Part shown: positions 458 to 26,956 of the stretch, one piece after another
Layout: each line of letters opens with the position of its first letter
How positions within the stretch are numbered: position 1 is the first letter of the stretch
DNA from: a virus
Taxonomy: Duplodnaviria; Caudoviricetes
Virus record (IMG/VR): IMGVR_UViG_3300005611_000133
Span: 1 to 31,002 of that record
Strand: one strand, 5' to 3'
Length of the DNA stretch: 31,002 nt
The notes under the pieces: generated by a model
Databases searched by the model: none
What the model was told of the DNA's origin: nothing
What the model saw: only the letters and a program-made list of their open reading frames with translations
Made by a program: the position numbers and the translations under genes

Positions 458-907
458 TTACTCCATTATTTTTTGTTTGTTTCGTTCGTTCGCTATGGAC
501 TGCATTTTCATTGTTATTAGTGCTGATTCTGATTTGTTTTTTTCAGTCTCAATAATCGGTTGATTTCTGCTTAACTTTAAAGCACGTTTTAATTTTTTAT
601 CGGCTGAGTTCATATAAGATTCTATATATTTTGCGTTCTCACTGGGTAATAAAATTTTGTAATCGCCTTTATATTGTGTAAATGCCTTGCCCTCCCCTAA
701 TAGTACGTTTCTCACATAATCCGTTACAGATAACATCTGCAAATCAACATCCCTGAATTGTTGATGCGTTCCAATCTCCGGATACTCAACACCTATGACG
801 TTTTGGATTTCCGATGCTGGGATTACAGAACCGTAATCCGTCAGTCCTTTTGATCTGAGATAGGATAATAATTCCTTTCCTATCTGTGTTGCTGTCTTTT
901 TTTCCAT
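458..907 (-). CDS. Hypothetical protein (149 aa) directly downstream of the pentamer array
   Basis: ORF with AAGGTG upstream, in line with neighbouring minus-strand genes; no family recognised. Confidence 0.75.
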   Translation of the reverse strand: MEKKTATQIGKELLSYLRSKGLTDYGSVIPASEIQNVIGVEYPEIGTHQQFRDVDLQMLSVTDYVRNVLLGEGKAFTQYKGDYKILLPSENAKYIESYMNSADKKLKRALKLSRNQPIIETEKNKSESALITMKMQSIANERNKQKIME

Positions 908-939: not shown

Positions 940-1336
940 TCGTTTCTTTGCGCTGCTATACGGTGCTTTGCTTTGCTCTGCTTTGCAGTGCCTTGCTTTG
1001 CATTGCGTTGAAGTCTAAAAAACTTCGCTTAACCCACTATTACTAATGGGTTAAACGCTGTTCTTTGCTTTGCTTTGCTCTGCTCTGCTTTGCGGTGCGT
1101 TGCTATGCACTGAAGTTTAAAAAACTTCGCTTAACCAACTATTGCTAATTGGTTAAACGCTGTTCTTTGCGGTGCGGTGCTCTGCTTTGCAATGCTCTGC
1201 GATGCAATGCAATGCTCTGAAGTCTTAAAAAACTTCGCTTAACCCACTATTACTAATGGATTAAACGCTGTTCTTTGCTTTGCATTGCTCTGCCTTGCAG
1301 TGCTCTGCTTTGCATTGCTCTGCACTCTGAACTTAA
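940..1336 (-). ncRNA. Putative structured multi-unit guide-like RNA encoded by the array
   Basis: The linker folds on the minus strand as UUAACCCAUUA-GUAA-UAGUGGGUUAA. Copy 2 has a compensatory pair change and a GCAA loop; copy 3 has a C-G to U-G wobble. A second hairpin GAAGU...ACUUC follows. Transcription is inferred, not shown. Confidence 0.7.
949..1325 (-). repeat. Array of four (NN-GCA)n pentamer tracts separated by three conserved 57-58 bp linkers
   Basis: Plus-strand TGCNN tracts at 949-1008 (12 units, one TAC variant), 1066-1110 (9), 1168-1217 (10), 1276-1325 (10); near-identical linkers at 1009-1065, 1111-1167, 1218-1275. Confidence 0.97.
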
Positions 1337-1927
1337 TCAGTCAAAATCTACTAATGCCCTGCCGAAAGTAGGCCGGAAGTCACCAAACCCGCCATATTTA
1401 CAAGCACGCTCCAGCATTATTTTTAAATCCCTTTCGGTTGTTACACTTTCATCAAATTCAAGTGACGATTCAAAACTCCAGTCGTGGAAAATAGGGAAAT
1501 ATTTTGCCAATCGTACCTGCCCTTGAGGCAAAATCATTTTGTGTCTAAACTCGTTATTTTTAACAACATCAACTGGCGATTTAACCATTGATTTGTTTCT
1601 GTAATTTAATTTTATCTTTGGTTCACTCATGAACAAGCACCCGCGCATAGCTGACTTGCTTACTTTTGATACGCTAAAGCTAACTTTGTTAATTGCGGCT
1701 TGCACCCATGTTGATGGGATATATATTCCTAGTTCATCATCCCAGTAAATTTTTGATCTGATTTCTAGATCAGCCAGTTCGGCGTGATCTTCGTCAGTCT
1801 TAATCCTTTTTGAGGTAATTGGTTTTTTCAATTTAGTATATTTATTTAATGGATCAGCACATTGCGGGTTGTTTAATAATAAAGGTGCAAACCCCGTTAT
1901 TTTAAATTGCATTTCTGATATAGCCAT
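1337..1927 (-). CDS. Stand-alone RAMP-superfamily (Cas7-like) protein, 196 aa
   Basis: N-terminal strand FKITGFAPLLLNN, GIYIPSTWVQAAI (compare the RAMP YIPGSSxKG motif) and C-terminal glycine-rich loop GGFGDFRPTFG; AGGAG RBS. The CDS is secure; the fold call is by eye. Confidence 0.7.
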   Translation of the reverse strand: MAISEMQFKITGFAPLLLNNPQCADPLNKYTKLKKPITSKRIKTDEDHAELADLEIRSKIYWDDELGIYIPSTWVQAAINKVSFSVSKVSKSAMRGCLFMSEPKIKLNYRNKSMVKSPVDVVKNNEFRHKMILPQGQVRLAKYFPIFHDWSFESSLEFDESVTTERDLKIMLERACKYGGFGDFRPTFGRALVDFD

Positions 1928-24183: not shown

Positions 24184-25112
24184 TGGCGATAATTGTTAAT
24201 CCGCACAGCATTATTTTAGCATCGAGTAACGTTACGGCTTCCGCATTGTCTGAGTATAATTCTGGCACAGCTTACACAGCAGGTCAGCAAGTTAAAGTTA
24301 GTTTTGAATCAGATGGTACAACACCACGCACGCCAGTTTATGAATATGAAGCAGTCGGGGGTACTACAGGGAATTATCCACCCAATGATGACGGCACAAA
24401 CTGGACGCTAATTGGGGCTTCAAACAAATGGAAAATGTTTGATAGCTATGTGAGCAGTCAGACAGAAAATGCAGACACAATTGAGATTGAACTAACTGTC
24501 ACTAAAGCAGATAAATTATATTTGCTTAACGTGCAAGCTGACGAGATACGAGTAGTTTGCAAAGAATCAGATTTAACGCCGATCTCAGATGAAACTATAG
24601 CTATGTCTGATACGAGTTCAGGCAGCTGGAGTGAATACTTTTTCGGGGATTTTGAGTTTAAAACTGTACTGGCGTATGATTTACCTGGGTACTATACTAA
24701 TATGTCAGTTACTATCACGATTGATAAAACTGGCGGCACGGCTAAATGCGGTCATTGTGTCATAGGCAAGAAAATTGAGATCGGAACTACCGAGTACGGC
24801 ATAAGCGTGGGTATTCAAGACTACTCAGTTAAAGAAACTAATGATTTCGGGGAAACGACTTTTTTGGAACGAGCGTTTGCGAAAGTGATAGACGCGGATT
24901 TGTTTATACAGCACGATACCACAGGCAGCGAGTATGATAGAATACAACGAGTGTTATCGTCTATCCGCGCCACACCGTGCGTGTATGATTTTAACAACAA
25001 CGGGAGCAGCACAGGCTCTTTTGTTGCGTTCGGCTTTTTTAAAGATTTTGATTTAGTTGCACGTTATGCGACAATAACACATTGCAGTCTTAGCATCGAG
25101 GGACTAATTTAA
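24183..25112 (+). CDS. Tail tip / distal tail structural protein
   Basis: Follows the tape measure gene; NKWKMFD, GIQDYSVKETNDFG. Confidence 0.7.
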   Translation: MAIIVNPHSIILASSNVTASALSEYNSGTAYTAGQQVKVSFESDGTTPRTPVYEYEAVGGTTGNYPPNDDGTNWTLIGASNKWKMFDSYVSSQTENADTIEIELTVTKADKLYLLNVQADEIRVVCKESDLTPISDETIAMSDTSSGSWSEYFFGDFEFKTVLAYDLPGYYTNMSVTITIDKTGGTAKCGHCVIGKKIEIGTTEYGISVGIQDYSVKETNDFGETTFLERAFAKVIDADLFIQHDTTGSEYDRIQRVLSSIRATPCVYDFNNNGSSTGSFVAFGFFKDFDLVARYATITHCSLSIEGLI

Positions 25113-26956
25113 TGACAATATCACAAGTAATCACAGATTTACCAACACCACCGAGCAGGGCGGACAGTTCAACTTTTGACACAAGGGCAGATGCTTTTCT
25201 AGGGGCTTTAGATGATTTAGCAAGCCAGATAAATACTTGGGCGGGTGAAGCAAATAGCACGGCTGGCACGGTTAATACGGATGCAAACGCAGCGGCAATA
25301 TCAGAAACTAATGCCGCAACCAGTGCATCAAATGCAGCCACCAGTGAAACCAATGCTGCAGCAAGTGCAGCCTCAGCTGCCACAAGCGAAACTAACGCTG
25401 CCGCCAGTTATGACGCTTTTGATGACAGGTATTTAGGTAGTAAAGCCAGCGATCCTACTTTAGATAATGACGGAGATGCACTTCTAACAGGGGCTATTTA
25501 TTGGAATACCGCTGTTAGTTCATTAAAGATTTATGACGGTGCAGCGTGGCAGTTGGCAGCATTTGATACTTCGGGGGCATTGATAGCCACTAATAACCTG
25601 TCTGACTTAAACGATGCAGCAACAGCACGGATTAACTTAGGTATTACAGTAGTAACTATTAGTGGCTCATCATCAATCTATGTAACAACAGATAACGATT
25701 ATACAATCACTAATTACGATTCATTTTCAACTTATTCACAATCTGTATCAAGCGGCTCAGTGTCAAGAACAGGTGACACAATAACTGTAACAGCACCAGT
25801 CAGTGCCGGAGATATAACGCTGACAGTTACTAAGGATGATGTTAGTACAGACTTTACTATCACAGTACTAGCCGCAGGGATAGCAACACCAACAAACACA
25901 AGCCCTACTAATGGGGCTAGTGATCAAGGTGAATCAACCGAACTAACATCCAGTGCGTTCAGTTGGTTAGGTGTGAGTGATACTCATGCTTCCTCTGATT
26001 GGCAGATAGCTACAGATAGTGGTTTTAGTAATATTATTGATAGCACTACAACAGATGCAGTTAATTTAACCACTTGGACACCAACGGGATTAGTCGTATC
26101 ACAAACGTATTACTGGCGGGTAAGGCATACAGGAGCAAGTAATGGGGCAAGTGAGTGGAGTAGTGCAACTACGTTTACCACTAAGGCATCTTTCGATCCA
26201 ATACCTGGAACGCCGAGTGTCTTTGAAAGTGCTTATTCAGACTACACATCAGTAACCACTTTAGACTCTACTAAAGCAATAGTGACTTATAGGGATGATG
26301 GTAACTCAGGCTACGGTACAGCCTGTGTTTTAAGCATATCTGGTACAACTATAACTGCTGGTACTCCTGTAGTCTTTGAAAGTGTTAATTCACAGTACAT
26401 ATCAGTAACCACTTTAGACTCTACTAAAGCAATAGTAACTTATAGGGATGATGGTAACTCATACTACGGTACAGCCTGTGTATTAAGTATATCTGGCACT
26501 ACTATTACAGCAGGGACACCAGTGGTATTTGAAAGCGCTGAAACAGCTTACATATCAGTAACCACATTAGATTCTACTAAAGCAATAGTGACTTATCAGG
26601 ATTTTGGTAACTTAGGCTACGGTACTGCCTGTGTATTAAGCATATCTGGTACTACTATAACTGCTGGTACTCCTGTAGTCTTTGAAAGCGCTACTTCAAC
26701 CTACATATCAGTAACCACTTTAGACAGTACTAAAGCAATAGTAACTTATAGGGATGTTGGTAACTCAGACTACGGTACAGCATGTGTTTTAAGTATATCG
26801 GGCACTACTATAACTGCTGGTACTCCTGTAGTCTTTGAAAGTGCTACTTTAACCTACATATCAGTAACCACTTTAGACTCTACTAAAGCAATAGTAACTT
26901 ATAGGGATGGTGGTAACTCAGGCTACGGTACAGCAAATACAATTTCAGGATTATAA
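25112..26956 (+). CDS. Tail fibre / receptor-binding protein with Ala-Ser linker, FN3-like domain and five 51-aa repeats
   Basis: SETNAA repeats, NNLSDL..AATARINLG, TYYWRVRH..SEWS, tandem C-terminal repeats. Confidence 0.8.
   Translation: MTISQVITDLPTPPSRADSSTFDTRADAFLGALDDLASQINTWAGEANSTAGTVNTDANAAAISETNAATSASNAATSETNAAASAASAATSETNAAASYDAFDDRYLGSKASDPTLDNDGDALLTGAIYWNTAVSSLKIYDGAAWQLAAFDTSGALIATNNLSDLNDAATARINLGITVVTISGSSSIYVTTDNDYTITNYDSFSTYSQSVSSGSVSRTGDTITVTAPVSAGDITLTVTKDDVSTDFTITVLAAGIATPTNTSPTNGASDQGESTELTSSAFSWLGVSDTHASSDWQIATDSGFSNIIDSTTTDAVNLTTWTPTGLVVSQTYYWRVRHTGASNGASEWSSATTFTTKASFDPIPGTPSVFESAYSDYTSVTTLDSTKAIVTYRDDGNSGYGTACVLSISGTTITAGTPVVFESVNSQYISVTTLDSTKAIVTYRDDGNSYYGTACVLSISGTTITAGTPVVFESAETAYISVTTLDSTKAIVTYQDFGNLGYGTACVLSISGTTITAGTPVVFESATSTYISVTTLDSTKAIVTYRDVGNSDYGTACVLSISGTTITAGTPVVFESATLTYISVTTLDSTKAIVTYRDGGNSGYGTANTISGL
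26207..26935 (+). repeat. Five tandem 153-bp coding repeats (last one truncated)
   Basis: GTxTTTGAAAG anchors at 26219, 26372, 26525, 26678, 26831. Confidence 0.97.

Follow-up and report, generated by a model that had tools for sequence, protein, structure and literature searches.

Structured tails of probable vrRNAs in a GCA/NN pentamer array at a phage VIPR locus

In a fragment of an uncultured phage (31-kb; the whole stretch of 31,002 nucleotides is hereafter called the window), a non-coding array of 390 bp lies between two minus-strand genes and consists of pentamer tracts separated by three structured linkers (Table 1). We consider it highly probable that these linkers are structured 3' tails of vrRNAs, likely serving as filament caps and guide boundaries, in a phage VIPR system. 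VIPR, first described in 2026, is presented in the discovery preprint as a CRISPR-like, RNA-guided silencer of DNA (10.64898/2026.04.26.720920), and the VIPR preprints give its make-up as two genes carried by phages, one of which encodes the RAMP protein Vipr (10.64898/2026.04.26.720920, 10.64898/2026.04.26.720927). According to the discovery text, vrRNAs are about 100 nt long and comprise 9-16 pentamers, with GGY fixed and NN variable, and end in a structured 3' tail that does not vary (10.64898/2026.04.26.720920). There is one Vipr protomer per repeat in these descriptions, and the NN bases pair with dsDNA, one base being skipped per unit (10.64898/2026.04.26.720920, 10.64898/2026.04.26.720927).

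The gene that precedes the array on the minus strand, ORF196, had been called RAMP-like in a preliminary description of this DNA, and the comparison with solved structures confirmed it: the product is a sequence homologue of the 'SUSP1 Vipr protein' (PDB 36pp_D; phmmer E = 3.4e-31, residues 6-194 against 4-188). The family profile matched the same protein with E = 1.4e-66, and the glycine-rich loop GFGDFRP of ORF196 aligns with GVGDWRP of SUSP1. ORF196 also belongs to PHROG 4652 (E = 7e-58), a family annotated as of unknown function, and had no match in Pfam or NCBIfam. Its relatives are numerous, with 1,645 of the representatives at 50% identity matching ORF196 at E <= 0.001. The window further shows the minimal two-gene layout of VIPR loci, with an adjacent accessory gene (ORF149). 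Because ORF196 matches the solved SUSP1 Vipr protein, the locus, judged by its defining features at the sequence level, is a VIPR system. Neither cas genes nor a CRISPR repeat-spacer array were found at the locus; Rfam 15 gave no match at E <= 1 in the whole window on either strand, and no CRISPR repeat family either; a blastn search of the array against phage genomes returned no match.

Table 1. Positions of the genes, pentamer tracts and tails at the locus, numbered along the window.
Feature	Position	Strand	Remarks
vipr gene, 196 aa, RAMP protein	1337..1927	-	phmmer match to PDB 36pp_D and family profile; clade of GCA/NN arrays
vrRNA1 repeat tract, 10 GCANN units	1274..1323	-	NN = GA AT AA GA CT AG GA AT AA AA
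Tail 1 (linker 3 of the preliminary description)	about 1215-1275	-	covariance-model match 60.7 bits, E = 6.6e-16
Tail 1 hairpin 1	1236-1267	-	14 bp, GUAA loop, extra U.G
Tail 1 hairpin 2	1219-1236	-	
vrRNA2 repeat tract, 10 GCANN units	1166..1215	-	
Tail 2 (linker 2 of the preliminary description)	about 1108-1167	-	covariance-model match 62.9 bits, E = 1.4e-16
Tail 2 hairpin 1	1128-1159	-	A-U replaces C-G, GCAA loop
Tail 2 hairpin 2	1112-1128	-	
vrRNA3 repeat tract, 9 GCANN units	1064..1108	-	
Tail 3 (linker 1 of the preliminary description)	about 1006-1065	-	covariance-model match 66.5 bits, E = 1.1e-17
Tail 3 hairpin 1	1026-1057	-	
Tail 3 hairpin 2	1010-1026	-	
Fourth tract, 12 units (one GUA), tail-less	947..1006	-	runs into ribosome-binding region of next gene
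Accessory gene, 149 aa, vap1-like	458..907	-	constant vipr partner in clade

The GCANNGCANNGCANNGCA pentamer pattern occurs 26 times in the window, in every case on the minus strand (26/26) and within 964-1323, with none expected from 100 shuffles, and Tandem Repeats Finder gave the composite unit of the array a period of 102-108. Only GCA is fixed in the tracts of the window and NN are variable. That the tracts between the linkers are the guide segments had escaped the preliminary description. Among 56 segments of the family, the distance from tail to tail has a median of 110.5 nt (IQR 107-116.5), the most frequent number of pentamer slots is ten (18/56), and GCA occupies 70% of the slots in register. 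The unit size of about 100-110 nt proposed earlier agrees with these values, with units of ~102-108 nt in the window, and with vrRNAs of ~100 nt in VIPR. Elsewhere in the window, at 26219-26934 on the plus strand, there is a tandem repeat with a 153-bp unit in 4.7 copies (86% matches), within an ORF of 614 aa (25112-26956) in the structural-gene region.

Positions 1009-1275 hold three near-identical copies of an element of ~57 nt with a strong fold on the minus strand. RNAfold gave minus-strand energies of -23.5, -21.1 and -20.9 kcal/mol for linkers 1, 2 and 3 (z = -7.5, -7.4 and -6.4), with 0/200 shuffles as stable, and plus-strand energies of -12.9, -12.2 and -6.7 kcal/mol (z = -3.4, -2.9 and -1.6), a comparison of both strands that supports the fold proposed beforehand. 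The sequence detail reported for the linkers was likewise correct: on the minus strand linker 1 reads UUAACCCAUUA-GUAA-UAGUGGGUUAA, linker 2 replaces one C-G by A-U and has the loop GCAA, linker 3 replaces one C-G by U.G, and the copies of the second hairpin, GAAGU...ACUUC, vary only between the arms. The stem of hairpin 1 is present as reported and is longer than had been written, with 14 bp (CGUUUAACCCAUUA/UAGUGGGUUAAGCG) and a U.G pair in all three copies. The description of the tract flanks holds as well: AAGAA follows every tract and UUCA stands directly before tracts 2-4, which continue in NNGCA register, while in tract 1 the UUCA is followed by one irregular 7-nt unit. RNAfold prefers an outer helix, AAGAAC/GUUUUU, in the tails of the window, in competition with hairpin 2. 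Taken alone, the three copies contain one compensatory change and one wobble change only, and the weight of the case for RNA structure rests on homologous tails in other phages.

A covariance model built from 21 tails (R1) and run at E <= 0.01 against 76 sources (334,865 bases) recovered 123 tails, all of them on the vipr strand (123/123). In the window it matched three tails and nothing else in the 31 kb, and it found no tails in the three GGY-type loci searched. Over the 106 distinct rows of the model-fitted alignment, 94.0% of the pair cells hold standard pairs, whereas shuffled controls reach 69.6% and slid partners 28-54%; compensatory changes affect 17/18 tail pairs (433 cells vs 121 in shuffles), and the covariation score is 0.667 vs 0.217 in shuffles. 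This alignment leans towards structure because it is fitted to the model. RNAalifold run on a plain MAFFT alignment of the 21 tails predicted hairpin 1 independently, with 14 pairs of which 10 show double changes, and the U.G of hairpin 1 was present there in 21/21 tails. In the larger set the same U.G, at tail columns 20-35, is invariant (105/105) and forms the third pair below the loop-closing pair of hairpin 1; G.U or U.G pairs are frequent at several stem positions as well (for example, 40 and 30 of 106). Such pairs point to an RNA of the vipr strand because the other strand would have A.C mismatches. Selection at the RNA level on the minus strand, which had been proposed for the linkers, is thus borne out by covariation over 123 homologous tails, an outcome fixed in advance as the test, and the covariance-model check across homologous loci that had been called for returned strong covariation, with 17 of the 18 pairs compensated.

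The conserved shape of the tail comprises hairpin 1 of 13-14 bp, hairpin 2 of 5-7 bp, and three base pairs that join the leader to the hairpin-2 loop. All five pairs of hairpin 2 show double changes across homologous tails, with 94% of cells paired. In the third element the leader pairs with the start of the loop, 88% of cells are paired vs 31-50% in slid controls, and all three pairs covary (AU/CG/UA; GC/GU/UA; CG/AU). In most relatives the length of the hairpin-2 loop would let this pairing make a pseudoknot; the loop in the window has 3-4 nt, so that there the leader pairing and hairpin 2 exclude each other and no pseudoknot would form. One feature of the preliminary description was not sustained by the homologues: the GNRA loop cannot be counted as a conserved feature because the hairpin-1 loops vary widely among the 106 distinct tails (GCAA 14, GAAA 7, CAAC 7, CAU 7, and others).

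The position of the tail relative to its tract can be read from the arrays of relatives. Upstream of vipr, tract and tail are repeated and the last tail stands before vipr (for example, in L140, L143, L168, L216 and L217); this order of tract-tail, tract-tail, vipr fits a 3' tail. Downstream of vipr, as in the window, the final tract is tail-less and runs into the leader of the accessory gene, an arrangement shared by the window with L139, L137, L151, L152 and L187. The assignment to 5' or 3' in downstream arrays rests on analogy because a hairpin module precedes the first tract in some relatives, namely Listonella phage phiHSIC (L137) and Vibrio phage 1.266.O (L136), and in arrays downstream of vipr the tail modules might also be 5' handles. 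The closing stretch of the tail-less last tract (GCACC GUAUA GCAGY GCAAA GAAA) is nearly identical in the window (947-971, minus strand) and in Vibrio phage 1.266.O (L136:2955-2985, plus strand); it precedes the accessory gene in the former and vipr in the latter, and its NN positions are conserved although the two Vipr proteins are only 52% identical. A further array of a different build, in the IMG/VR contig 3300020120_000066 (L036:1501-2454, plus strand), has twelve short GCANN tracts of 5-12 units joined by a recurring GGCAGGA-type junction, not by hairpin tails, and gave no match to the tail model.

Extending the SUSP1 system to the window, a filament of Vipr would assemble on each GCANN tract with one protomer per pentamer, and each protomer would hold the fixed triplet and present the NN bases. 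These would pair with the dsDNA of a competing phage or satellite, one base being skipped per unit, and the pairing would silence transcription of the target. The tail would cap the 3' end of the filament, as it does in SUSP1, whose tail sequence differs, and would mark the boundary between successive guides of ~105 nt. Transcription would run through vipr and the array in one piece, and the tails would be the sites of later cutting or of partial termination; a single transcript is favored because the units abut without a promoter-like site between them, none having been found between units on the minus strand in the promoter scan of the window. The hairpins, described earlier as linkers or handles of the array, would in this case be more than linkers, although the view of them as selected RNA structures stands.

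It is unlikely that the hairpins act as processing sites only, with no role in the mature RNP, such that hairpin 1 is recognized, and the RNA cut near the UUCA after hairpin 2, by an RNase of the host or, in the manner of Cas6, by Vipr or the accessory protein. The direct abutment of units without a promoter-like site on the minus strand would agree with processing, as would the YUCA(A/G) motif found before each tract in the window and in relatives, the invariant U.G, which looks like a recognition mark for a protein, and the arrays shown in the discovery preprint whose processed vrRNAs directly adjoin, each starting where the one before it ends (10.64898/2026.04.26.720920). However, the SUSP1 tail stays on the mature vrRNA and caps its 3' end in the cryo-EM map described in the preprints (10.64898/2026.04.26.720920, 10.64898/2026.04.26.720927), and processing concerns how the ends are made, which is compatible with the tails being part of the finished vrRNA.

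The structure of the tails in the window also resembles intrinsic terminators, in which case hairpin 1 and a run of six U would make each vrRNA a transcription unit of its own or would attenuate the array stepwise; we regard this as very unlikely. A loose consensus scan flagged all three minus-strand copies, with a 14-bp stem and then AAGUUUUUUA, and the region has 6 terminator-like sites vs 1.6 expected. Yet the U run is specific to the lineage of the window, its positions correspond to the 5' arm and loop of the covarying hairpin 2 in the 123 homologous tails, three non-U bases separate it from the stem, and no promoter-like site follows from which transcription could restart. A GC-rich stem directly joined to a U run, and conserved as such, was not found in the homologues.

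The array stands among replication and recombination genes (AAA_24, an SSB-like gene, a YqaJ exonuclease, a DEAD helicase and Prim-Pol), but that it is a DNA-level element, such as an origin or iteron array bound every 5 bp by a replication protein, with inverted repeats that form cruciforms, is scarcely credible given that G.U and U.G pairs, which are mismatches on the other strand, are kept in the stems, that 123/123 tails lie on the vipr strand, that vipr and the accessory gene, and not replication genes, accompany the array, which lies among head genes in phiHSIC, and that vipr is homologous to a solved RNA-guided protein. Two other ideas were dropped when ORF196 was found to match Vipr: an array of primase sites or an origin, and a sponge RNA for a TRAP-like ring protein, with GCA every 5 nt around a ring of about ten subunits. 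The analogy with TRAP lay behind the latter.

The variability of the NN bases agrees with their reading as guide positions. Their entropy is 3.87 of 4 bits in the GCA family (948 units) and 2.78 bits in the guides of the window, where AA fills 13/38 units, a low complexity; these guides could be decayed or slipped. In L001/L139, with a Vipr 93% identical to that of the window, GCA is kept and the tails are near-identical, while the NN sets are quite different (AA/GA-rich in the window vs AG-rich in L139). NN positions would thus seem to behave as guide positions, and the pattern resembles that of conserved repeats with variable spacers. Perfect repeats with the same pentamer pattern, (GCACA)n, (GCAGA)n or (GCAGC)n, occur in many viral contigs (L057, L022, L052, L065, L105 and others); these are simple microsatellites and not arrays with variable NN.

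Searches for targets gave no excess over controls. Apart from the array itself, the guides of the window have no self-target in the window. Under the rule of one skipped base, vrRNA2 has 0 exact matches in viral contigs and vrRNA1 has 20, with 11/20 in one near-identical gene family; the vrRNA1 matches were taken as chance because the control with reversed order gave 17. Likewise, 68 guides of the clade showed no excess at skips of 0-3 in 0.72 Mb of the collected loci. In three contigs (L226 at 1501-1529 on the plus strand, L228 and L231) vrRNA1 matches at 20/20 NN bases and in codon phase. These matches sit inside a small coiled-coil ORF (for example, L226 1213-1608), and matches of 18 bases are about as many in the reversed-order control.

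Compared with VIPR type II, represented by SUSP1 and a prophage of Pseudomonas fulva, the locus likewise belongs to a phage, encodes a RAMP protein of the Vipr kind (~200 aa) and has a small accessory gene on the vipr strand that is distantly similar to the gene after vipr in the Felixounavirus wV8. Its guides, predicted as transcripts here, are also ~100 nt and consist of pentamers (9-12 in the window) with a fixed triplet and NN, followed by a structured 3' tail. The hallmarks of type II given in the VIPR preprints are the Vipr phylogeny, a vap1 predicted to bind DNA, GGY/NN vrRNAs and a pseudoknot tail (10.64898/2026.04.26.720920, 10.64898/2026.04.26.720927). The fixed triplet is GGY in type II whereas it is GCA in the window, which has no GGY/NN array. 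The SUSP1 tail is a pseudoknot whereas that of the clade of the window is two adjacent hairpins with the invariant U.G; it has no sequence likeness to tails of the wV8/SUSP1 type, although the 3-bp leader-loop pairing covaries. Unlike in type II, vipr and the accessory gene flank the array, whose units abut. ORF196 itself is 34% identical to Felixounavirus Vipr.

The likeness to Class 1 CRISPR crRNA concerns the Cas7 backbone, as a RAMP protein likewise polymerizes on a guide RNA at a fixed period, and the arrays, as a conserved hairpin likewise bounds each guide in a co-directional array (10.64898/2026.04.26.720920, for both points, as discussed in that preprint). The spacer of Class 1 CRISPR is a contiguous 32 nt, whereas the guide bases of the window are interleaved at a 5-nt period; and Class 1 systems have cas genes and a repeat-spacer array, whereas the window has neither of them, nor an Rfam CRISPR repeat family.

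Variants of the repeat have been described before. The text of the discovery preprint gives NNNGG, YNNNG and NNNNG (10.64898/2026.04.26.720920), and the Evo-PIN preprint reports 21 clusters with non-canonical triplets, of which its text names GAC/NN, CAC/NN, WGT/NN and TGH/NN (10.64898/2026.10.21.760802). The Evo-PIN arrays also have pentamers with a non-GGY triplet, about 10 units, and a position beside a Vipr-like fold (10.64898/2026.10.21.760802); the passages of the Evo-PIN text on such arrays describe neither tails nor a link between triplet and residues (10.64898/2026.10.21.760802), both of which are seen in the clade of the window, the link as a correlation. GCA/NN is unnamed in the Evo-PIN text, whose Fig. 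S10A, listing all patterns, may include it (10.64898/2026.10.21.760802), and it does not appear in the text of the VIPR preprints or the discovery supplement, though Fig. S17 of the discovery preprint and the data tables may show it. A literature search for GCA/NN pentamer arrays returned unrelated papers only. Relative to the texts of the VIPR preprints, the fixed triplet, the residues that contact it and the tail are different, and the figures and tables may already include the clade. All VIPR cases worked out so far use GGY/NN guides.

GCA/NN arrays were also found in the cultured phages Vibrio phage 1.266.O and Listonella phage phiHSIC, with Vipr identities to ORF196 of 52% and 49%; relatives at 31-34% identity, including wV8, carry GGY/NN arrays. 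GCA is the leading fixed triplet on the vipr strand in 39 of 81 further loci (L139-L219), among which distant loci have GGC or GGT, and one (L192) has GAA. Residues were compared with triplets in an alignment of 75 Vipr ORFs, at the positions that contact the triplet in SUSP1. Positions 19, 74 and 144 align with SUSP1 H17, M72 and R138, which contact G1, Y3 and G2, respectively, in the structural preprint as described (10.64898/2026.04.26.720927). The loci with GCA arrays have W74 (36/36), N19 (33/36) and no R144 (36/36), position 144 being F in 18, A in 11, M in 3, C in 3 and V in 1; GGY loci have H19 and R144 in 13/13 and W74 in 0/13. ORF196 differs from SUSP1 at 6/9 triplet contacts (H17>N19, E71>T73, M72>W74, R138>F144, C173>G179 and 175>F181), with W178 replaced by F184 as well, and D177 and R179 kept; both the first triplet base, G, and its aspartate contact are retained. 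The fixed triplet appears, as a correlation across sequences, to track the contact residues of Vipr. A large natural clade would in this way pair another fixed triplet with matching changes in the triplet-holding residues known from SUSP1, and the pairing would be a specificity code for the choice of RNA by Vipr and a possible route to orthogonal pairs of Vipr and guide.

These observations could be joined in a more speculative reading, which we hold to be possible though doubtful: a VIPR lineage not yet described that uses GCA instead of GGY, with a swapped pocket and a different cap, guides unusable across types and a tuned accessory gene. In such a lineage the pocket would have changed by coordinated swaps (H>N, R>F/A/M, M/Y>W and V/I>F), the 3' cap would be two stacked hairpins with a short leader-loop pairing, and the invariant U.G would be a mark for loading or processing. 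The accessory gene would be tuned by Vipr bound to its 5' leader, where the tail-less last tract would offer an inherent binding site. If so, guides of GCA-type and GGY-type phages would be mutually unusable.

The accessory gene has no family in Pfam, PHROGs or NCBIfam. With a profile of the ORF149 family, 62 of 86 vipr loci gave a matching ORF on the vipr strand, mostly as the gene next after vipr, and the distant GGY-type loci gave none. In a comparison of ORF149 with the gene after vipr in Escherichia phage wV8 (gp095), hhalign gave a probability of 76% and E = 2.3e-5 over 89 columns. The AF2 model of ORF149 has a pLDDT of 86.1; Foldseek found nothing in the PDB at E <= 0.001, and its weaker matches are mostly winged-helix DNA binders (best E = 0.069), and the wide VIA search reached a top Z of 8.8 for a generic C-terminal helical hairpin only. 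Given these weak or generic fold matches, we call ORF149 vap1-like, with DNA binding as a possible function.

Another locus of the survey looks like a further non-canonical VIPR variant. It lies in the IMG/VR contig 3300017598_000221, where a Vipr homologue that is 44% identical to ORF196 and has I144 and N179 is followed by arrays (L192:2659-2950, plus strand) with the fixed triplet GAA, 40 units in runs, and no match to the tail model of the GCA clade.

The tail model, with its 123 copies, invariant U.G and covarying leader-loop contact, names candidate nucleotides for vrRNA processing and filament capping and could be used to search for arrays missed by current annotation, such as that of phiHSIC. 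In that phage (NC_006953), the array is flanked by ORF22, the vipr homologue, and ORF20, the vap1-like gene, and the annotated ORF21, on the opposite strand and exactly over the GCA/NN array (L137:3614-3895), is probably a spurious gene call.
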